Shown in pieces: positions 10,193 through 32,699 of a DNA stretch of 37,275 nucleotides; position 1 is the stretch's first letter; every line of letters begins with the position of its first letter. The stretch covers positions 1-37,275 of the forward strand of contig DASSZC010000436.1 in the NCBI GenBank assembly GCA_035702925.1, given 5' to 3'. The position numbers and the translations under genes were made by a program. The notes beneath the pieces were generated by a model. That model had not been told where the DNA came from and searched no databases. It was given only the letters and a program-made list of their open reading frames with translations. Source of the stretch: Gemmatimonadaceae bacterium. Its GTDB lineage: Bacteria > Gemmatimonadota > Gemmatimonadetes > Gemmatimonadales > Gemmatimonadaceae.

Positions 10193-10804
10193 TCAGGCGG
10201 CGCCGCCGGCTCGCGCCTGCAGCTCGGCACGCACCGCGTCGAGGGAGAGACCGAGCGCACGGAGCGCGACGAGGGTGTGGTAGATGATGTCCGCCGCCTC
10301 CGCCGTGGCGCGCGGCGCATCGCCGTCGGCGCAGGCGACCGCGAGCTCGGCGGCTTCCTCGCCGAGCTTCTTCAGTCTCAGGTTGCGATCGGCGAGCAGC
10401 TTGCGCGTATAGCCCTTGCCCGCCTCCCCCTGTTCGGCGGCGCGCTGGGCGATCGTCCGGTCGAGGGCGCCTAACGCGTCGGCGCCGTGCGCGGTCTCGC
10501 CGAAGCAGGACCGGGCACCGGTGTGGCAGGCGGGGCCAGCCGGCGCAACGCGGGCAAGGATCGCGTCGCTGTCGCAGTCAGCGGAAAGCGAGACCACCCG
10601 CTGGGTGTTGCCGCTGGTCGCTCCCTTGTGCCAGAGGCCCCGCGTGCGCGAGCGGTAATGCATCTCCCCCGTGGCGATGGTGCGCTCGAGTGCCTCACGG
10701 TCGGCGTGGGCAACCATGAGGACGATGCCGCTCGTCGCATCCTGGGTGACGACGGTGACGAGCCCGCCGCCCTTGGCGAAGTCCAGCACGTCGAGATCAA
10801 GCAC
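10193..10804 (-). CDS. hisIE: bifunctional phosphoribosyl-AMP cyclohydrolase / phosphoribosyl-ATP pyrophosphatase
   Basis: Track ORF 10193..10918 trimmed to the GTG at 10804, which overlaps the hisN stop (GTGCTTGA). Contains LDFAKGGGLVTVVTQD and the CHTGARSCF zinc motif. The C-terminal HisE part includes EEAAEL...IIYHTLV. Confidence 0.85.
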   Translation of the reverse strand: MLDLDVLDFAKGGGLVTVVTQDATSGIVLMVAHADREALERTIATGEMHYRSRTRGLWHKGATSGNTQRVVSLSADCDSDAILARVAPAGPACHTGARSCFGETAHGADALGALDRTIAQRAAEQGEAGKGYTRKLLADRNLRLKKLGEEAAELAVACADGDAPRATAEAADIIYHTLVALRALGLSLDAVRAELQARAGGAA

Positions 10805-11597
10805 GGGTGACTCCAGCTCCAAGAATCGTGCGCGCTTCACGGGCGAGCGCGGCGTTGGTGGCGATGGCGCTTCCGCCAAACCCGGTCGCGCGCCCACTCC
10901 AGTCGGTGAACACGCCACCGGATTCGGTGATGATCGGGTACAGTGCGGCGGTGTCCCACGGTCCGACGATCCCGTCGACCATCACCTCGGCGCGTCCGGT
11001 CGCGACGAGCAGGTAGCCGTAGCAGTCTCCCCACGAACGGGCGACCGCGCTCCGCGCGGCGAGCGAACGCCAGCCTTCGAGATGCTGCGGGGTCTGACGG
11101 AAGCGCTCATCGGTAGTCAGGACCGTCGCGTCAGCGAGCGTCGCAACTGATGAGACCTGGCACCGCGCGCCGTTCGACCAGCAGCCGGCACCCGATGCGG
11201 CGGCGATCATCTCGCCGACGGCGGGAAAGTACGCCGCGCCGGCGACGACCTCTTCCCCCATGGCGATGGCGACGAGCGTTCCCCAGAGCGGAACCCCGCG
11301 GACGAAGGTCTTCGTCCCGTCGATCGGGTCGACGATCCACCGATATTTCGAGCCGGCTCCCGTTTCGCCCTGCTCCTCGCCGAGTATTCCGTGATCGGGG
11401 TAGCGGCGACCGATCCACTCGCGCGCGGCCTGCTCCGCCTCACGGTCGGCGATGGTGACGGGGGATCCATCGGTCTTCCACTCGACAGCGACGCCGCGGC
11501 GGAAATGACGAAGCGCGGCATCGCCGGCGATGCGCGCGACCTCGGTGACCGCCTCGAGAAGTTCGTTTTTCGCGGGCGCGGCGGCGGTCGTGGTCAT
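10797..11597 (-). CDS. hisN: inositol-monophosphatase-family histidinol-phosphatase
   Basis: Track ORF. IMPase motifs WIVDPIDGT and WDTAA. Embedded in the his operon, with an ATGA overlap to hisF. Confidence 0.8.
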
Positions 11598-12355
11598 GCA
11601 GCCCTCCGCACCGGCACGTGGTGCGCGGCGAGCAGCGCCTTGATCTCACCGACCGTCGTGACCCCGTCGTGGAGGATCCCGGCGACCAGCGCCGCGTCGG
11701 CGCCGCCGCTGCCTAACGCGTCGAGGACGTGGTGAGCGTCCCCCGCCCCTCCGGAGGCGATCACCGGCACGTTCACCGCATCGGCGACCGCGCGAGTCAG
11801 CTCGAGGTCGTACCCGATGCGCGCACCGTCGCGATCGATGCTGGTCAGCATGATCTCCCCGGCGCCGCGCGCGACGCACTCGCGCGCCCAGCTAACGGCG
11901 TCGAGCCCGGTCGCGACGCGGCCGCCGCGGGAGTACACATGCCAGCCGTCACCTTCTCGCCGGGCGTCGATGCTGGCGACGACGCACTGCGCGCCGAAGC
12001 GATCGGCCGCCTCGGTGAGCACCTCGGGCCGTTCGATCGCCGACGAGTTGAGGCTCGTCTTGTCCGCCCCCGCGCGCAGCGCACGGCCGACGTCGTCCGC
12101 GGTGCGGATGCCACCGCCGATGGTGAGTGGGATGAACAGTCGTTCGGCGGTCCGCCGCGCGAGGTCGAGAAGGGTCGCCCGCTCCTCCGCGCTGGCCGAG
12201 ATGTCGAGGAAGACGATCTCGTCGGCGCCCTCGCGCTCATAACGCTCGGCGAGGACCACCGGATCGCCGACATCGCGCAGCGACTCGAACTGCACACCCT
12301 TCACGACCCGTCCCCCGGCGACGTCGAGGCAGACGATCAGCCGGCGCGTCAGCAC
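11594..12355 (-). CDS. hisF: imidazole glycerol phosphate synthase cyclase subunit
   Basis: Track ORF. Contains [23 protein letters not shown] and VIASGGAG. Confidence 0.95.
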
Positions 12356-12380
12356 GGCGCAGCCCCGCGGCGCGCTGTCT

Positions 12381-12920
12381 TCATTCGCTCACCTTCAGTC
12401 CGACCGAGCCCTTGGTGCTGAAGACGACTCCGTCGTCGGCGAGCGCGTCGCGAAGGCAGAGGCCCAACGCCTTGAAGCCGGCTTCGACGATGTGATGGCG
12501 ATCGACGCCGCGCAGCACGCGGATATGCACCGTCGCCATCGCGTTGTCGGCGAAAGAGCGCATCCAGTGATCATACAGCGAGGAGGGGAGCGGTCCGCGA
12601 TAGTATGGCCGGCCACCGAGATCGACCGCGCACTCGACGAGTGCATCGTCCATCGGGACGACGCGGTGCGCGTAGCGGGCCGCGGTCGATGGCGTGATCT
12701 CCCTGACCACGGCACCGACGCAGATCGCGACGTCCTCGATGGTGTGGTGGCGAAGGTCGCCGGTCGCCGCGATCTCGAGGTCGAGCCCCGAGTAGCGGGC
12801 GAGCGCAACCATCATGTGATCGAGGAACTCGACTCCCGTCTGCGAGACGCCGAGCCCATTCCCCGGCTTCGCCTCGACGCGGATGCGCGTCTCCTTGGTC
12901 TGACGCTCGACGATGCTCAT
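12381..12920 (-). CDS. hisB: imidazoleglycerol-phosphate dehydratase (monofunctional)
   Basis: Track ORF. Contains [22 protein letters not shown] and HHIVEA. Confidence 0.9.
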
Positions 12921-12930
12921 GCCAGGCTCC

Positions 12931-13644
12931 TCATTCGCAGAACTCCCCGGAGACGGCGCGCGGATCGAGCGCGCCGGTGTACAGCGCCATCCCGATCACC
13001 GCGCCGGCGATGCCGCGGTCGGCGAGCGCGCGCAGGTCGTTCATGGTTGTGATCCCGCCCGACGCGAGCACGGGAAACTCGCTCTGCTCGGCGACATCTT
13101 CCATGAGGAACAGGTCGGTCCCGCGCATCTGCCCTTCCTTGTGCACCGCGGTGACGAGCACCCCGCCGAGCGGGCTGTCGTTCAACTCGGCGATGACGTC
13201 GAAGATGTCGCGGTGCTGCGTCTTCTCCCAACCGTGGGTCACGACGCGCCGCTCACGCACGTCGGCGGCGACGATGATCTCGCCGGGATACTGCGTCGCG
13301 ATCCCGTGCAGCCACTCCGGCTCCTCGATCGCGCGCGTCCCGACGACGACATATTCCGCGCCATCGCGCAGCAGCCGCTCGATCGCATCCTCGCTTCGCA
13401 CACCGCCGCCGACCTGGACGAGCATGTCGCTCAGCCCGATGAGGTCGCGAACGATGCGCTCGTTGGAGCCGCGACCGGTCGCCGCGTCGAGGTCGACGAC
13501 GTGCAGCCGCGTGAACCCGGCATCCGTCCACGCGCGCGCGACACCGGCGGGATCGGGAATCCGGATGCGCTCCGCGTCGTACGAGCCGCCGACGAGTTGC
13601 ACGCATGCACCTTCACGAATGTCGACCGCTGGTATCGCGATCAT
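12931..13644 (-). CDS. hisA: 1-(5-phosphoribosyl)-5-[(5-phosphoribosylamino)methylideneamino]imidazole-4-carboxamide isomerase
   Basis: Track ORF. Contains IPAVDIREGACVQLVGG, VQVGGGVRS and LASGGITT. ATGA overlap with the hisH stop. Confidence 0.95.
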   Translation of the reverse strand: MIAIPAVDIREGACVQLVGGSYDAERIRIPDPAGVARAWTDAGFTRLHVVDLDAATGRGSNERIVRDLIGLSDMLVQVGGGVRSEDAIERLLRDGAEYVVVGTRAIEEPEWLHGIATQYPGEIIVAADVRERRVVTHGWEKTQHRDIFDVIAELNDSPLGGVLVTAVHKEGQMRGTDLFLMEDVAEQSEFPVLASGGITTMNDLRALADRGIAGAVIGMALYTGALDPRAVSGEFCE

Positions 13645-14240
13645 CCGAGCGCCTCGGTAACGAGCGCGGCGAGCAGGGCGACGCCCTCACGCGAGCTCTT
13701 CTCAGGGTGAAATTGCACGCCGGTCGCGCTCCCCGCGCGTACCGCCGAGGGAAAGCGGTCACCGCCCTCGGTGGTCCACGCCGTGACGACTCGGTCGTCG
13801 CGCGGGCGACAGACGTAGCTGTGTGCAAAGTAGGCGACGTCGAGAGGACTTGTAGCGAGGGCGCTCCCCGCGACTGCATCGACGGTGTTCCAGCCGATGT
13901 GCGGGATCCGCGGGGACCGGATCCGCTCGACATGCCCGGGGATCACGCCGAGCCCGCGACCGGGCCCCTCGTCACTGTCATCGAAGAGCAGCTGCATGCC
14001 GAGGCAGATGCCGATCGTTGGCAGGCCACCTTCGATCGCCGCTCGCGTCTCGGCGAGCGCGGGGGCGAGCCGCTCCGCCGCCGGCTGAAAGGCGCCGACA
14101 CCGGGAAGCACGAACAGGTCGGCCTCGATCGCCCGGCGCGGATCACTCTCGATGCTGATCGCGTGCCCCGTCTCGGCGAGTGCCTTGCCGAGCGAGTGGA
14201 GGTTTCCCGCCCCGTAATCGAACAGCGCGATGCGCATCAT
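13641..14240 (-). CDS. hisH: imidazole glycerol phosphate synthase glutamine amidotransferase subunit
   Basis: Track ORF 13641..14543 trimmed to MMRIALFDYGAGNLHS. Catalytic GICLGMQLL is present. The start overlaps the hisC stop. Confidence 0.9.
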   Translation of the reverse strand: MMRIALFDYGAGNLHSLGKALAETGHAISIESDPRRAIEADLFVLPGVGAFQPAAERLAPALAETRAAIEGGLPTIGICLGMQLLFDDSDEGPGRGLGVIPGHVERIRSPRIPHIGWNTVDAVAGSALATSPLDVAYFAHSYVCRPRDDRVVTAWTTEGGDRFPSAVRAGSATGVQFHPEKSSREGVALLAALVTEALG

Positions 14241-15328
14241 CCACCTCCCATCGTGGCGTCGAGCGCGCCGAGCGCGGCCTCGACCATGTCCCACGGTCCG
14301 ACGCTGATCCGCAGCGCCGATCCACCGCTGATGCGCAGCGCATCGCTGATCGCCGGCAATCCCTCGAACGGTCGCACCGCGACACCGAGCGTGCGCATGT
14401 GGCGCGCGCGCGCGTTCGCATTGGTGATCGGGACGAGCACGAAGTTCGCCTCCGAGTGAATGGGCGCGAGATTCCGCCGCTCGAGCTCGGAGGTGAGGCG
14501 ATCGCGGTTGGCCTTCGCTTCGACGATGTGCTCGCGTGCCCACTCGAGGCCGTCGCCGAGCGCGGCGAGCGCGGCACGCTCGGCGACGGCGTTCACCTTG
14601 TACGGTCCGCGCGACTTCTCGACTTCGGCGACGAGCGCCGGTGCGCCGGTCGCGTAGCCGATGCGCAACCCGGCGAGGCCGAACGCCTTCGACATCGTTC
14701 GCGCGACGAGCACGCGATCGTTCTCGAGGGCGCTTGGGGACAGGTCCACCGAGGCGAACTCCGCGTACGCCTCGTCGATGATCACGATGCCAGTGGCCCG
14801 CTCGACGATGCGCTCGACCGCCGAGCGCGAGAGCGATGCGCCAGTGGGGTTGTTGGGCGAGCAGAGATAGATGATGCGCGCATCGGTCGCGAGCATCGCG
14901 TCCGGGTCGATGTCATAGCTCGAGGTCAGCGGGACGGTGACGGACCGCAGCCCGTTCATCCGGGCGAAGATCGGGATCATCGCGAAGGACGGATCGGGCG
15001 AGACGATGACGTCCCCCGGTTCGGCGAAGGCGCGGATCGCCGAATCGAGAATGTCATCGGAGCCGCAACCGGTGACCATGCGGTCGTGGGAGACACCAAG
15101 GTAGCGCCCGAGCGCTTCCTTGAGCGACGCGGCGTACAGATTCGGATAGCGCGTCACCGTGGAAACCGAGGCCTGGCGAATTGCATCTTCGACAGCCGGG
15201 GCGACCCCCCAGCAGTTGGTGTTGTCGCTGAGGTCGACGCGACAGGGCGCACGGTCGGGGGCGTAGAGCTCGATCGTGCGATAGCTCTCACGCGTCAGGC
15301 CAGACGATCGGTTCATCTCGCGCTCCAT
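14237..15328 (-). CDS. hisC: histidinol-phosphate aminotransferase
   Basis: Track ORF. PLP-lysine region SKAFGLAGLRIGY. An alternative start at 15316 (MNRSSG) would give an ATGA overlap with the hisD stop. Confidence 0.9.
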   Translation of the reverse strand: MEREMNRSSGLTRESYRTIELYAPDRAPCRVDLSDNTNCWGVAPAVEDAIRQASVSTVTRYPNLYAASLKEALGRYLGVSHDRMVTGCGSDDILDSAIRAFAEPGDVIVSPDPSFAMIPIFARMNGLRSVTVPLTSSYDIDPDAMLATDARIIYLCSPNNPTGASLSRSAVERIVERATGIVIIDEAYAEFASVDLSPSALENDRVLVARTMSKAFGLAGLRIGYATGAPALVAEVEKSRGPYKVNAVAERAALAALGDGLEWAREHIVEAKANRDRLTSELERRNLAPIHSEANFVLVPITNANARARHMRTLGVAVRPFEGLPAISDALRISGGSALRISVGPWDMVEAALGALDATMGGG

Positions 15329-16614
15329 GCTCTGGCCGCGGCAGCGTGTCCGGGAAGTTCTTCCGCATCGGCGAAGATGCCGACGTCACCCGCCAACCGC
15401 GCCGCTGCCTCACGGTCGATCCGCTGCCAGGTCGTCCAGCGGACGAAGTCGAGGGTGGACAGCCCCGAGTAGCAGCGAGCGAGTCCGCCGGTGGGAAGGA
15501 CGTGGTTCGCGCCGGTCATGTAGTCGCCGAACGCGACGGAGCTCGTCGCACCGACGAAGACGGTACCGGCACCGCGCAGCTGGCGAAGTACGCTGTCGGA
15601 ATCGGCGCAGGCGACCAGCACGTGTTCGGCAGCGATCTCGTTGGCGAGCGCGATCGCCTGCCTCATGTCGTCGGCCTCGAGCACTCCGCCGCGAGCGCCG
15701 AGTGCGGCGGCGACGATGGCGCGTCGCGGCGCGGAATCGATCGCAGCGGTGAGCGAAGCATCGATAGCGCTGGACGAACCGACGACGATCGCCAGCACCA
15801 GGGTATCCGGGTCGTGCTCGGCCTGCGCGACGAGCTCTCGCGCGACGACGTCGGGGTCGGCCGCCGCGTCGCAGATGATCAGCAGCTCGCTCGGTCCAGC
15901 CGGCGAGTCGATGGCGACGTTTCCGGACACCTGCAGCTTCGCCTCGGCGACATACGCGTTCCCCGGCCCGACGATGCGATCGACGCGCGGGACGCTCCCG
16001 GTGCCGTATGCCATCGCCGCGATCGCCCCCGCCCCGCCTAACGCGAAGACGCGGTCGACGCCGGCGAGCGCGGCCGCGGCGAGCACCACGGGCGCGGGCT
16101 CGCCGCCGGCTTGCGGGGGCGAGCAGAGCACGACCTCGCCGACCCCGGCGACCCGCGCCGGCACCGCGCCCATCAGGACGCTGCTCGGATAGAGGGCACG
16201 CCCACCGGGAGCGTAGACACCGACGCGCCCGAGCGGATCCGGACGCCGGCCGATGATGACACCCGGCTCCGTCTCGATCTCCTGCGCCACCGGACGAAAG
16301 GCCGCGTGCGCGGTCTCGATATTTCGCGCCGCACGCTCCATCGCCTTCCGCAGCGGCGGCTCGACGCGATCGAGCGCCCGCAGCCATCGGGGACGCGGTA
16401 CCTCGAGCGCATCGAGGTTGACCCCGTCGAGCTCCACCGCCAGGGCGCGCAGCGCCGCGTCGCCTTCGCGACGCACGCGCGAAACGATCCCCGCCACGCG
16501 CTCACGGACGACCGGGTCACTCGACGTCGTCCGCTCGAGCAGCAATCGCCTCGTTGCCTCGCTCATCTCGGCGACCCGCCCCGCCACCGCCCACCGTGCT
16601 CGCCCCTCTCTCAT
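15313..16614 (-). CDS. hisD: histidinol dehydrogenase
   Basis: Track ORF. Contains QAEHD and GDYMTGANHVLPTGG. The true start may be the internal ATG at 16566 (MSEATRR). Confidence 0.9.
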   Translation of the reverse strand: MREGRARWAVAGRVAEMSEATRRLLLERTTSSDPVVRERVAGIVSRVRREGDAALRALAVELDGVNLDALEVPRPRWLRALDRVEPPLRKAMERAARNIETAHAAFRPVAQEIETEPGVIIGRRPDPLGRVGVYAPGGRALYPSSVLMGAVPARVAGVGEVVLCSPPQAGGEPAPVVLAAAALAGVDRVFALGGAGAIAAMAYGTGSVPRVDRIVGPGNAYVAEAKLQVSGNVAIDSPAGPSELLIICDAAADPDVVARELVAQAEHDPDTLVLAIVVGSSSAIDASLTAAIDSAPRRAIVAAALGARGGVLEADDMRQAIALANEIAAEHVLVACADSDSVLRQLRGAGTVFVGATSSVAFGDYMTGANHVLPTGGLARCYSGLSTLDFVRWTTWQRIDREAAARLAGDVGIFADAEELPGHAAAARAWSAR

Positions 16615-16676
16615 CTCTCATTCGGAGTCTCTCTCGTCTCTCATCGCCGTGTCATAGCCAGCATGGCGGAGTGATC

Positions 16677-17546
16677 TCAAGGCATGAGCCGCTCGATCCT
16701 CGTCACGAGGATCCCTTCGGCGCCGAGCGACTTCAGCTCGGCGATCGTGCGATAGACCGTCTTTGCCGGAACGACCGCGTGCACCGCGACGTGAATGCCG
16801 CCGTCGAGGATGTCGATCACCGTCGGGCCGTTGAGCCCGGGGATCACCCGGCGCACCGCGTCGAGCGCGGCGCGGGGGACGTTGGCCATGAGGTAGCGCT
16901 TCCCGCGCGCGCGGAGCACCGAGTCGAGCGCCATCGTCAGCTCCTCGATCGAGCGCCGGCGGTCGGCGCTCCCCGTCGTCAGCGCGTTAGGCGCGGCGAC
17001 GAGGCGGGCCGTCGACTCCATGATCGTCTCGACCTCGTGGAGCCCATTCACCTTGAGCGTCGAACCCGTCGAGGTGATGTCGACGATGACGTCGGCGATG
17101 CCGATGTGCGGCGCGATCTCGGCCGCCCCGGAGACGGGGACGATCTCGACGCGCTGGTTGCGGTCGGCGAAGAAGCGCGCGGCCAGCCGCGGGTAGACGG
17201 TGGCGACTCTCGCCCCGGCGGGGATCGCGGCTGTCGTCGCAACGCTGCTGTCGTCGCTCGCGGCGACGATGAGGCGGCAGCGCCCGAACTCGAGGTCGGC
17301 GAGGGTCTCGAGGTCGCGCCCCGACTCGCTGACGAGGTCCCAGCCGGTGACGCCGGCGTCGGCGGCGCCGTCGGCGACGAACTCGGGGATGTCCTGGGCG
17401 CGAACGAACAGCGCCTGGAACTCGCCACCAAGCGAGGCCGTCAGCGCCCGCTCACCGGTAGCCCGTACCTCGAGCCCGGCGTCGCCGAACAGCAGGCGCG
17501 CCTCCTCGGAAAGCCGTCCCTTGTTCGGTAGTGCGATCTTCAACAT
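16677..17546 (-). CDS. hisG: ATP phosphoribosyltransferase (long form)
   Basis: Track ORF. MLKIALPNKGRLSEEA, with a C-terminal regulatory domain present (289 aa). Confidence 0.95.
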   Translation of the reverse strand: MLKIALPNKGRLSEEARLLFGDAGLEVRATGERALTASLGGEFQALFVRAQDIPEFVADGAADAGVTGWDLVSESGRDLETLADLEFGRCRLIVAASDDSSVATTAAIPAGARVATVYPRLAARFFADRNQRVEIVPVSGAAEIAPHIGIADVIVDITSTGSTLKVNGLHEVETIMESTARLVAAPNALTTGSADRRRSIEELTMALDSVLRARGKRYLMANVPRAALDAVRRVIPGLNGPTVIDILDGGIHVAVHAVVPAKTVYRTIAELKSLGAEGILVTRIERLMP

Positions 17547-17606
17547 TCCAACCTCGGCGATTGAAGCTCGGCCATTCCGTCTCCGGCATGACCGTGAACG
17601 TCGGTG

Positions 17607-17639
17607 AAAACAAAAAAGGCCCGTCCACGTGGACGGGCC
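17607..17639 (-). terminator. intrinsic terminator / attenuator between the his leader peptide and hisG
   Basis: Perfect palindrome GGCCCGTCCACGTGGACGGGCC (17618-17639). On the minus strand it is followed by TTTTTTGTTTT (plus-strand A-run 17607-17617). It lies 35 nt after the leader stop codon and about 60 nt before the hisG ATG. Confidence 0.75.
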
Positions 17640-17674
17640 GCGACAGCGCGAAGCGTTACTCCCGGGCGATCAGA

Positions 17675-17752
17675 TCACCCGCACACGCGACACGACGCCC
17701 CGACCCGTAGGCCGTGGTGGCTCGCATGATGGTGGTGGACGAGGGTCTGCAT
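17675..17752 (-). CDS. hisL: histidine operon leader peptide (25 aa): MQTLVHHHHASHHGLRVGASCRVCG
   Basis: Minus-strand ATG at 17752. Codons read GTC CAC CAC CAT CAT GCG AGC CAC CAC, giving six His in eight codons, with TGA at 17677-17675. It sits between a sigma70-like promoter and a terminator directly upstream of hisG. It is too short for the ORF track, which lists only a different-frame 73-aa ORF here. Confidence 0.7.
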   Translation of the reverse strand: MQTLVHHHHASHHGLRVGASCRVCG

Positions 17753-17761
17753 CGCGAACGA

Positions 17762-17790
17762 AGACTAGAGAGGCTCGCGCGCCAAGTCAA
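17762..17790 (-). promoter_or_regulatory. putative sigma70-type promoter of the his operon (TTGACT-17 nt-TAGTCT)
   Basis: On the minus strand, TTGACT lies at 17790-17785 and TAGTCT at 17767-17762, with a 17-nt spacer. The -10 element ends 9 nt before the leader ATG, implying a leaderless or near-leaderless leader mRNA. That fits the absence of a Shine-Dalgarno sequence. Confidence 0.45.
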
Positions 17791-17923
17791 CCGCACCCGG
17801 TCCGGCGAGGCATCGTCGCGGTCGCTTGCTCGCCTCATTGCTTGCTCACACGAGCCGCTGAACGCCAAGACGTGCACGCATCACGTTTCGGGCATGTCTC
17901 CTGCTCAATTGCTTTGACACGAC

Positions 17924-17943
17924 ATTGTGAATAAATTCACAAT
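17924..17943. promoter_or_regulatory. perfect CRP-type palindrome ATTGTGAAT-AA-ATTCACAAT (TGTGA-N6-TCACA)
   Basis: 9-bp perfect inverted arms. The core TGTGA (17926-17930) and TCACA (17937-17941) match the CRP consensus half-sites. The site is centred about 74 bp upstream of the cupredoxin ATG and overlaps a TTGACA (17914-17919)-18 nt-CACAAT promoter-like element. Confidence 0.5.
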
Positions 17944-18007
17944 TCTCCGCGGTGACCCTGCGGAGTGGATGTCACACACCAAGTGCCACGTACGGAGGCC
18001 TCAAGGA

Positions 18008-18514
18008 ATGCGGTTCAACGGAATTGCGCTCGTCGCGGGAGCGATGGCGATCGTCGCCTGCGCTGGCGGCGAGAAGAAGACGGAAACGACCACCACTACG
18101 ACCGACACGACCGCCGCAGCGGCCACGACCACGTCGACCACCACCGCGACTGCCGGTAGCAGCACCGCGATGGCGCCCATCACGGGCAAGACGGTCGAGG
18201 TCAAGATGATCGGCGATGGCACCACCTATAAGTTCGAGCCTGCCGAGATCGAGTTGAAGCAGGGCGATGGCGTGAAGTTCATCATGGTCTCGGGCGGCCC
18301 ACACAACGTTGCGTTCATCGACACGCCGGCGGCCGCGCAGGCGCAGCTCTCGGCGAACATGCCGCAGCAGATGAAGGAGCTCACCAGCCCGATGATGATG
18401 ACGGCGAACGAGACCTACACCGTCTCTTTTGCCAACGTCCCGGTTGGCACGTACAACTTCCATTGCGAGCCGCACGCCGCGATGGGCATGAAGGGCAAGA
18501 TCACCGTCAAGTAA
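18008..18514 (+). CDS. type-1 copper (plastocyanin/pseudoazurin-like cupredoxin) lipoprotein
   Basis: Track ORF 17927..18514 trimmed to the ATG at 18008, which follows a GGAGG. Lipobox AIVAC and a Thr-rich linker. Copper ligands in GGPHNVAF and YNFHCEPHAAMGM (His, Cys, His, Met). Confidence 0.85.
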   Translation: MRFNGIALVAGAMAIVACAGGEKKTETTTTTTDTTAAAATTTSTTTATAGSSTAMAPITGKTVEVKMIGDGTTYKFEPAEIELKQGDGVKFIMVSGGPHNVAFIDTPAAAQAQLSANMPQQMKELTSPMMMTANETYTVSFANVPVGTYNFHCEPHAAMGMKGKITVK

Positions 18515-31685: not shown

Positions 31686-32699
31686 TTAGGCGCCGGCGGC
31701 GGGCCGCGGCGGCATCCGCCGCGTCCGCTCGTCACCCAGTACCCAGCAGCGGTCCGCGGGAAGATGCCGAGCCGCCCAGGCGTCGAGCGCGCGTCTGGGC
31801 GGCTCGTCCATCGGTTCGTCGGTGAGGCGGAAAGTCCCCCAGTGCGTCGCGAGCAGCACGGGGGCGGGCGCTCCCGCGCCGGCGCCGAGATCCACGGCGG
31901 CGGACACCGCTTCCTCGGCGTTCATGTGCACGGGCCGCATGAACCAGCGCGGCTCATACGCGCCGATCGGAAGGAGCGCGAGATCGAAGGGCCCTAGCCG
32001 GCGGCCGATCTCGACGAACTCGGGATGGTAGCCCGTGTCGCCGCCGAAGAGAACGCGCCATCCATGCGCTGCGATCGCGAAGCCCGCCCACAAGGTGCTG
32101 TCGCGATTGGCGAGCGAGCGGCCGCTGAAATGCTGCGCGGGGACGGCGGTGATGATGGTGTCGGCGGCCCTCGTCGACTGCCACCAGTCGAGCTCGGCCA
32201 CCTGCGCAACGCCGAAACTGGTGAGCAGTCCGCCGACGCCGAGGGGGGCGACCCAGCGTGCCGCCGGGTGCGCGATGGCGAGGGCACGGATCGTTGGCGC
32301 GTCGAGGTGGTCGTAGTGGTCGTGGGAGAGGACGACGACGTCGATCGGCGGCAGCGAGGCGAGGGATATCGCCGGAGGAACGAGCCGGCGCGGCCCGGCC
32401 CACGAGACCGGCGACGCGCGCTCGCTCCAGATCGGGTCGGTGAGCACGTTCATCGCGCCGACCTGCAGGAGGACCGTCGAATGGCCGATCCACGTGGCGC
32501 GCAGCGAGCCGTCGTCCTGCCGTGGGTGCACGATGGCCGAGCGACCGACCGCGAGCGGCGAGCGGTCGGCGACACGCTCGCCGCGCAGCCGCCTAACGGC
32601 GCGGCCGGCGGCCCAGCGGAGAACGGCGGAAAATCCCTGCGGTCGGGCGCCGGGCCATGGATTGCGGTAGCCGCCGCCGGGTGCGTGGTGCTCGGTCAT
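31686..32699 (-). CDS. MBL-fold metallo-hydrolase (NAPE-PLD-like)
   Basis: C-terminal 337 aa of track ORF 31686..34163, starting MTEHHAPGGGYRNPWPG. Metal motif VVLSHDHYDHLD. The N-terminal roughly 490 aa of the track ORF are antisense to the NHL gene. Confidence 0.85.
   Translation of the reverse strand: MTEHHAPGGGYRNPWPGARPQGFSAVLRWAAGRAVRRLRGERVADRSPLAVGRSAIVHPRQDDGSLRATWIGHSTVLLQVGAMNVLTDPIWSERASPVSWAGPRRLVPPAISLASLPPIDVVVLSHDHYDHLDAPTIRALAIAHPAARWVAPLGVGGLLTSFGVAQVAELDWWQSTRAADTIITAVPAQHFSGRSLANRDSTLWAGFAIAAHGWRVLFGGDTGYHPEFVEIGRRLGPFDLALLPIGAYEPRWFMRPVHMNAEEAVSAAVDLGAGAGAPAPVLLATHWGTFRLTDEPMDEPPRRALDAWAARHLPADRCWVLGDERTRRMPPRPAAGA

Follow-up and report, generated by a model that had tools for sequence, protein, structure and literature searches.

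A predicted histidine attenuator with a probably leaderless leader peptide upstream of hisG in Gemmatimonadota, Myxococcota and Eisenbacteria

Upstream of hisG in a 37,275-nt stretch of DNA from a Gemmatimonadaceae bacterium (GenBank assembly GCA_035702925.1, contig DASSZC010000436.1; hereafter the window), we have delineated a leader RNA of only ~145 nt that, judged from its sequence and that of its relatives, is very likely a histidine-responsive, ribosome-mediated attenuator. It brings together a short open reading frame (ORF) whose codons match the amino acid made by the downstream genes, an intrinsic terminator, an antiterminator that uses the 5' arm of this terminator, and a protector pairing over the regulatory codons. 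An original prediction made from the window alone had pointed out a 25-codon minus-strand ORF with six His codons in eight between a cupredoxin gene and hisG, a 22-nt palindrome with a T6GT4 tract 35 nt past its stop, the hisG ATG ~60 nt further on, and a TTGACT-17-TAGTCT promoter ending 9 nt before the leader ATG, and all of these features were recovered at the positions listed in Table 1. The resemblance to the enterobacterial hisL attenuator that it proposed is supported by the conservation of the ORF, the terminator and the antiterminator in more than 120 loci and by simulated masking of the His codons (78/79 loci). Overall, the best explanation for the element is a transcription attenuator of the complete his operon with a leaderless or near-leaderless start, which we hold to be probable.

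The six His codons of the leader ORF occupy positions 17737-17726 and 17719-17714 on the minus strand. The expected count in the window is 0.04 for a run of four CAY codons (CAYCAYCAYCAY) and 0.00 for the terminator palindrome; with such low figures, and with the arrangement recurring upstream of every related hisG examined, chance is excluded as an explanation for the element. A second CAYCAYCAYCAY run, at 32149-32160 on the same strand, was discarded as a chance occurrence with no leader, as it lies out of frame in an 825-codon mechanical ORF that reads as an ordinary protein and is not accompanied by a terminator. The leader ORF is absent from called genes and proteins, as evidenced by a search of a collection of ~15 billion predicted proteins, and none of the four leader peptides tested against Pfam and NCBIfam profiles yielded a match at E up to 10.

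Related loci were gathered in two hisG scans. The first returned 80 loci, 79 of them with enough upstream DNA (promoter statistics were taken on 78), and the second, run with an Eisenbacteria query and aimed at other phyla, provided 41 further loci from the same three phyla; in both scans, only Gemmatimonadota, Myxococcota and Eisenbacteria were among the best 80 hits. A His-rich short ORF was evident upstream of hisG and on its strand in 79/79 loci of the first scan and in 41/41 of the second, and the terminator was found in 79/79, so that the conservation of His run and hairpin, a check proposed in the original prediction, was seen throughout the first scan. Carriers include Gemmatimonas phototrophica (second scan) and Longimicrobiales in Gemmatimonadota, and Myxococcus xanthus, Corallococcus (C. 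coralloides), Archangium (A. gephyra), Hyalangium and Pyxidicoccus in Myxococcota; Eisenbacteria constitute the third phylum. The leader ORF begins 4-9 codons ahead of the first His, with ATG in almost all Gemmatimonadota and Eisenbacteria and with GTG in the majority of Myxococcota, and its stop codon lies 75-167 nt before hisG (79 loci).

Alignment of 73 leaders, on which all pairing counts given below were taken, resolved four conserved blocks with variable sequence between them. Segment 1, CGGCC(C/U), starts at the last base of the last His codon and copies the terminator 5' arm; it is followed, after a 3-4 nt loop, by segment 2 (GACGGGUCG; (G)ACGGGUCG in the alignment), which reproduces the terminator 3' arm. 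Segment 3, CGGCCCGUCC, is the terminator 5' arm itself, its opening 6-7 bases repeating segment 1, and segment 4, GGACGGGCC followed by the U tract, is nearly identical to segment 2. Segments 1 and 3 are thus alternative partners of segment 2, as segments 2 and 4 are of segment 3, which gives the classical 1:2 / 2:3 / 3:4 topology of an attenuator. In the window, the terminator is the palindrome GGCCCGTCCACGTGGACGGGCC, with a 9-bp stem (GGCCCGTCC/GGACGGGCC, 8 G-C pairs) closed by an ACGT loop; the stem sequence is kept across phyla, and the loop varies. The antiterminator pairing put forward in the original prediction, between ACGGGUCG and CGGCCCGU, is complementary in the window and conserved in relatives. 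This core belongs to an extended antiterminator in which segment 2 and the sequence that follows it pair with segment 3 and the bases preceding it. Folded as a consensus for the window and its six closest relatives, this structure has 26 pairs and an energy of -40 kcal/mol, and the hairpin at its apex (17681-17663) holds the leader stop codon. Myxococcota can form an analogous extended stem on an identical, invariant GACGGG/CCCGUC base. Median energies were -9.5 kcal/mol for the most stable local structure in the 30 nt from the last His codon onwards (the P1 region, that is, pairing 1:2), -18.7 kcal/mol for 2:3, an intermolecular duplex value with no loop penalty included, and -20.5 kcal/mol for 3:4.

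Compensatory changes were evident in the terminator and in the pairings that involve the coding region. The terminator is 99.4% paired across the alignment, with compensatory changes at three pairs and a switch of the outermost pair from G-C to A-U in 15 sequences. In hairpin P1 (1:2) pairing reaches 88%, with both partners altered at four of the six pairs. The analysis further uncovered a helix that the original prediction had missed, termed P0, in which the His run itself pairs with a segment downstream: in relatives, CAYGYG (a His codon plus an Ala or Val codon) pairs with CRCRUG located ~40 nt downstream, past segment 2. P0 is 93.4% paired, five of its six pairs show compensatory changes, and one of them is C-G in 28 sequences, U-A in 25 and U-G in 16. 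None of 500 shuffles matched the observed values, and sliding the helix by 1-3 columns resulted in far less pairing. Indeed, the minimum free energy (MFE) structure of the nascent window RNA at a length of 70-92 nt consists of P0 plus P1, with P0 enclosing P1. On the strength of this covariation, the regulatory His codons are themselves one strand of the protector structure. The run is nearly always split by a single codon (Ala GCG in ~49/73 leaders, Val GUG in ~20/73), and its role as a protector strand would explain this obligatory Ala/Val codon.

The RNA structure also leaves its mark on the peptide. The stretch encoding segments 1 and 2, CAC GGC CCG ACG GGU CGN GGN, is read as the motif HGPTGRG, and its wobble positions are conserved at 0.91 within stems, like codon positions 1 and 2, and at 0.46 in the loop. 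The N- and C-terminal residues of the peptide vary freely among relatives. The dual RNA constraint on these segments explains the conserved peptide motif.

To simulate a stalled ribosome, 79 leaders were cut short within the terminator loop, so that segment 4 was absent, and a mask of 28 nt held unpaired took the place of the ribosome; loci in which segment 3 paired with segment 2 with a probability above 0.5 were scored. Truncated transcripts were folded because equilibrium folding of the whole transcript cannot show a switch. Placing the mask either on the first His codon or in the middle of the His run led to 2:3 pairing in 78/79 loci, compared with 35/79 for free RNA. The unconstrained MFE of the window leader (z-score -1.3) is uninformative by itself.

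Taken as a mechanism, these features would operate as follows. A sigma-70-type promoter would start the transcript at the leader AUG or 1-3 nt before it, and translation would begin with no Shine-Dalgarno (SD) sequence, as in leaderless mRNAs. With histidine plentiful, the ribosome would reach the stop codon in the antiterminator apex and occlude the 5' half of that stem, P0 and P1 could re-form behind it, and segment 3, left with segment 4 as its only partner, would cause termination at the U tract, 60 nt before hisG. If charged His-tRNA is scarce, the ribosome would stall within the first His codons, melting P0 and freeing segment 2 and the sequence that follows; the freed stretch would then zip with segment 3 and its flank into the long antiterminator (~26 bp here) while segment 4 is still to be transcribed, and the polymerase would read into hisG.

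We fairly confidently expect the leader peptide to be translated from a transcript that is leaderless or carries at most 3 nt ahead of the start codon. The promoter spacer is 17 or 18 nt in all loci, and the -10 box, which is of the TAnnnT type in Gemmatimonadota and TACTCA- or TAACCC-like in Myxococcota, is separated from the start codon by 5-10 nt, most often 6-7 (76/78 loci); further upstream, sequence conservation among loci is lost. The base at -1 is C in 66/79 loci and that at +1 is A (57) or G (22), a purine in 79/79, which corresponds to the pyrimidine(-1)/purine(+1) context of a start site. Both this context and the promoter geometry place the putative transcription start at or near the leader start codon. 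SD-like tetramers precede it in as few as 3/79 loci, and the lack of an SD sequence noted in the original prediction holds for the window, where no SD-like match was found and the duplex with the anti-SD sequence is predicted at +1.0 kcal/mol, versus -6.6 kcal/mol for hisG. A TAnnnT box ~12 nt before the start codon is an accepted genomic signature of leaderless genes (PMC3160421), and both the geometry of the promoter and the SD counts conform to it.

Two further observations concern initiation in these loci. Exact TTGAC at the usual distance is missing from three Eisenbacteria loci (L067, L201 and L202) and from L015, with L067 carrying TTGCGG followed by a CATATT-like -10 box, which indicates that the promoter varies while the leader stays. 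Moreover, GGAG, GAGG or AGGA occurs at -20 to -4 of the hisG start in only 16/79 loci (L002-L080); the window hisG itself has GAGG. SD-independent initiation therefore seems common in these lineages.

Several points weigh against the attenuator and leaderless start as just described. The antiterminator core 2:3, 85.7% paired, rests on conserved complementarity, with both strands nearly invariant and essentially no covariation; in the extended antiterminator, too, pairs are kept with almost no double changes, in the Myxococcota subgroup as in that of the window. The lack of covariation in 2:3 follows from the near invariance of its strands, and conserved complementarity of this kind is what would be expected when each strand has two partners. 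In the truncated transcripts, free RNA and a ribosome on the stop codon (36/79 loci) still permit 2:3 pairing in ~45% of the loci, so that the model requires steric or kinetic exclusion of this pairing, and a mask on the last His codon, which covers segment 2, leaves it in just 28/79. The full-length transcript at equilibrium favours the terminator in 78/79 loci under any mask, which means that the switch must be kinetic; in the window, the full transcript favours the antiterminator at equilibrium. The constrained folding suggested in the original prediction thus revealed the switch in truncated transcripts and not in complete ones. As for the start site, the gap between the -10 box and the start codon is 9-10 nt in the window and its closest relatives, and the window has G at -1. 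With a box 9 nt from the ATG and this base, the window transcript likely carries a 1-3 nt leader, an outcome as probable as a true 5'-AUG, and the leaderless transcript of the original prediction, well supported by promoter geometry, the -1/+1 bases and the rarity of SD motifs across loci, has an equal competitor in the window itself. In addition, most Myxococcota copies would need to start at a 5'-GUG. In Deinococcus deserti, 14% of the mRNAs have leaders of 1-5 nt, and a trp leader peptide with a transcript starting at -1 is treated there as leaderless (PMC4007540).

The same attenuator could be carried on a longer transcript, with the real start further upstream, SD-less internal initiation that is either S1-dependent or takes place in an unstructured region, and the TTGAC/TAnnnT elements unused or serving as one of two promoters. 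The scarcity of SD motifs even before hisG argues that these lineages clearly use SD-independent initiation, and the distance of the window -10 box from the ATG, together with the G at -1, is less than ideal for a start at the A. Nevertheless, an exact -35 pentamer and, after a spacer of 17-18 nt, a TAnnnT box at a fixed 5-10 nt ahead of the start codon recur in 76/78 loci of three phyla, which is hard to explain unless they are a promoter; with the sequence beyond them unconserved and the start codon set in a Y(-1)R(+1) context in 66/79 loci, we consider a longer leader unlikely.

Much less probable still are two explanations that deny the His codons their regulatory role. Ni, Zn and Cu are possible ligands of His-rich peptides, the neighbouring gene encodes a cupredoxin, and HGPTGRG is conserved as amino acids, all of which would suit a functional small peptide, metal-binding or chaperone-like, followed by an ordinary terminator or insulator. 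Yet the ORF always stands directly before hisG on the same strand, regardless of the upstream neighbour, the conserved motif coincides exactly with segments 1 and 2, with stem wobbles conserved and termini free to vary, and the peptide has no family match in Pfam or NCBIfam; an always-on terminator downstream of the promoter would, besides, silence all nine biosynthetic genes behind it. Control of the terminator by a T-box with uncharged tRNA-His, by a riboswitch or by an RNA-binding protein, with incidental His codons, has precedents in the T-boxes or the HisR repressor of Firmicutes and Actinobacteria his operons (PMC9413887). We regard it as just as improbable here, considering that neither a T-box nor any other Rfam family matched at E up to 10, that the leader lacks a specifier-loop architecture within its ~145 nt, and that an in-frame His run with start and stop codons is conserved in every locus. 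A histidine-responsive attenuator with a start at or close to the leader AUG remains the explanation that we favour.

On sequence and structure together, the leaders make up a coherent RNA family. A covariance model built from 73 copies (R1), whose members score 48-125 bits, recovered the leader immediately 5' of hisG in 41/41 independent loci, with 40 scores of at least 64 bits and one degenerate Myxococcaceae copy at 34 bits, and gave at most 38 bits on ~100 decoy loci that share the terminator motif. The best sub-threshold matches, L159 (38 bits) and L095 (31 bits), contain no His codons and merely a similar terminator, and were rejected. The low-scoring member (L249:1342-1473, from a Myxococcaceae metagenome-assembled genome) has a degenerate leader, MSPVSVSQHAHHHGPHGPVRAG, with no TTGAC at the usual distance and no terminator recognized by regular expression, and may be a decaying or diverged attenuator. 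A plain pattern search across genome contigs (ACGGG...GCCCGTCC...GGACGGGC) proved too unspecific, with at least 120 stretches and a His ORF in 15 of those listed; all 15 came from Gemmatimonadota or unclassified bins.

Relative to the window protein (16677-17546), HisG is ~70% identical across Gemmatimonadota, Myxococcaceae/Archangiaceae (within L019-L080) and Eisenbacteria (L067, L072, L201 and L202), and its sequence puts the window in Gemmatimonadaceae. Taken with the promoter, leader and terminator stem that these groups have in common, this identity suggests that the his operon and its attenuator were transferred horizontally as one, or else that divergence was unusually slow. More tentatively, and with slightly more doubt than belief, we propose that this is an undescribed RNA family of three phyla in which initiation at the very 5' end would load the first ribosome as the RNA emerges, with no need of an SD sequence, in which the His run serves as a protector strand, and which would have travelled with hisG by horizontal transfer.

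Enterobacterial hisL offers the closest functional parallel, with a short ORF rich in His codons directly before hisG, an intrinsic terminator, mutually exclusive upstream pairings, His codons in the first pairing segment, and stalling on these codons that favours the antiterminator. The E. coli hisL peptide, MTRVQFKHHHHHHHPD, has seven consecutive His residues, an SD-led start and a stop two codons past the run. By contrast, the His run described here is interrupted by an Ala/Val codon that belongs to P0, the ORF goes on across segments 1 and 2 for another 12-20 codons, the stop codon is in the antiterminator apex, and the promoter abuts a start codon devoid of SD. The E. coli his leader folds into six segments (A-F), compared with the simpler 1-4 layout plus P0 of the present element. 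Scanning 17300-18100 against Rfam at E up to 10 gave no match to His_leader (RF00514) or a T-box and only weak, terminator-driven matches to unrelated small RNAs; lacking an RF00514 match, and resembling that family in neither sequence nor structure, the leader is not a member of the enterobacterial family. With the E. coli trp attenuator it shares the protector/antiterminator/terminator topology, a segment 3 common to antiterminator and terminator, and a terminator that is the most stable hairpin and hence imposes a kinetic choice. Apart from the amino acid sensed, the two differ in the stop codon, which in trp lies between segments 1 and 2, where a ribosome masks segment 2, and here is downstream of segment 2.

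The leaderless start, announced in the original prediction as an unusual variant of attenuation, is instead a known variation, since leader peptides with mapped start sites on leaderless transcripts have been documented in D. deserti (14 cases; PMC4007540), Streptomyces lividans (PMC8079986) and mycobacteria (bioRxiv 10.1101/834739). The leaders of these bacteria and of Corynebacterium resemble ours in that the ORF starts with AUG or GUG at the transcript 5' end or ~1 nt away from it. They belong to other phyla and address Cys, Trp, Leu, Ile/Val, Ala, Met and Thr, with no His leader mentioned in the sections consulted, and their start sites were mapped, while ours are deduced. Lineage-specific His leaders known from comparative genomics in Firmicutes (hisZ/hisS of the Bacillus cereus group, Peptostreptococcaceae and Erysipelotrichales; PMC9413887; PMC2965389) likewise combine a His leader peptide, a terminator and an antiterminator outside RF00514. 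They are unrelated in sequence, have 3-5 consecutive His codons in low-GC genomes and, in the parts of these two sources at hand, are not stated to be leaderless. Unassigned elements upstream of hisG have also been noted in Flavobacteriaceae (PMC9723704). Our literature search, which did not extend to Russian-language and subscription papers on delta-proteobacterial attenuation and thus leaves room for an earlier Myxococcus prediction, retrieved no description of the element for Gemmatimonadota, Myxococcota or Eisenbacteria, nor any of amino-acid attenuation for Myxococcota.

The leader is followed on the same strand by a complete his operon (Table 1). The hisG ATG is at 17546, 60 nt past the T tract, and is preceded by the SD sequence GAGG at 17555-17552 (minus strand); the gene (16677-17546) encodes the long form of the enzyme with a C-terminal domain. 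The gene upstream of the leader, which carries the cupredoxin domain, is divergent, so that the terminator cannot be attributed to a neighbouring gene. A promoter-like TTGACA-18-CACAAT (17914-17943, plus strand) ends 17 nt 5' of the first GTG (17927) of the cupredoxin-carrying ORF, and this promoter and that of the leader would stand back to back, ~125 nt apart. Within the operon, an inositol-monophosphatase-family gene (10797-11597, minus strand) lies between hisF and hisIE and probably encodes a histidinol-phosphate phosphatase of the HisN type; in the hisB ORF (179 aa), Pfam matches the dehydratase domain only. The mechanical ORFs of hisH (13641-14543, minus strand; 300 aa, the GATase domain being confined to residues 107-287) and hisIE (10193-10918, minus strand) overlap their upstream neighbours by 100-300 nt, and their true start codons are probably further downstream.

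Table 1. Features of the putative his attenuator and of the operon downstream, in window coordinates
Feature	Position	Strand	Basis or remark
-35 hexamer TTGACT	17785..17790	(-)	Sequence; exact TTGAC 35-40 nt before the leader start codon in 76/78 loci
-10 hexamer TAGTCT (TAnnnT)	17762..17767	(-)	17-nt spacer; ends 9 nt before ATG
Leader ORF, 25 codons, peptide MQTLVHHHHASHHGLRVGASCRVCG	17675..17752	(-)	Read from sequence; no SD
Start ATG of leader ORF	17752	(-)	
Stop codon of leader ORF	17677-17675	(-)	
Regulatory His run, codons 6-9 and 12-13, split by Ala-Ser	17714..17737	(-)	Sequence; relatives share the pattern HHH-[Ala/Val]-HH
Helix P0, 5' strand CAUGCGA (last His codon of first run + Ala codon)	17722..17728	(-)	Pairs with 17690-17684
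Helix P0, 3' strand UCGCGUG, inside leader ORF (segment 2b)	17684..17690	(-)	Covariation and nascent-RNA fold
Hairpin P1 (segments 1:2), CGGCC-UACG-GGUCG	17701..17714	(-)	RNAalifold consensus; begins on the final base of the last His codon
Segment 2, ACGGGUCG	17701..17708	(-)	Copy of terminator 3' arm; 5' strand of antiterminator base; complementary to CGGCCCGU (17640-17633)
Extended antiterminator, imperfect stem-loop of ~26 bp	17633..17708	(-)	MFE of transcript ending short of the terminator 3' arm
Intrinsic terminator stem-loop (segments 3:4), RNA GGCCCGUCC-ACGU-GGACGGGCC	17618..17639	(-)	dG -19.5 kcal/mol
T tract TTTTTTGTTTT (T6GT4)	17607..17617	(-)	Sequence
hisG-hisD-hisC-hisH-hisA-hisB-hisF-(inositol-monophosphatase family, HisN-like)-hisIE operon	10193..17546	(-)	Pfam assignments for all nine ORFs

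Gene regulation in Gemmatimonadota and Eisenbacteria is, to our knowledge, hardly documented at all. The leader would extend the lengthening series of leader peptides from leaderless mRNAs by one specific for His, and it illustrates how overlapping RNA constraints shape a peptide, as seen in the HGPTGRG motif and in the Ala/Val codon within the His run. It leaves the concept of attenuation unchanged and is a candidate for a new Rfam family, also of use for genome annotation, and a suitable experimental model in M. xanthus or Gemmatimonas. It provides a well-defined, testable regulatory RNA for his genes in these groups, among which Gemmatimonas phototrophica and Myxococcus xanthus are in culture.

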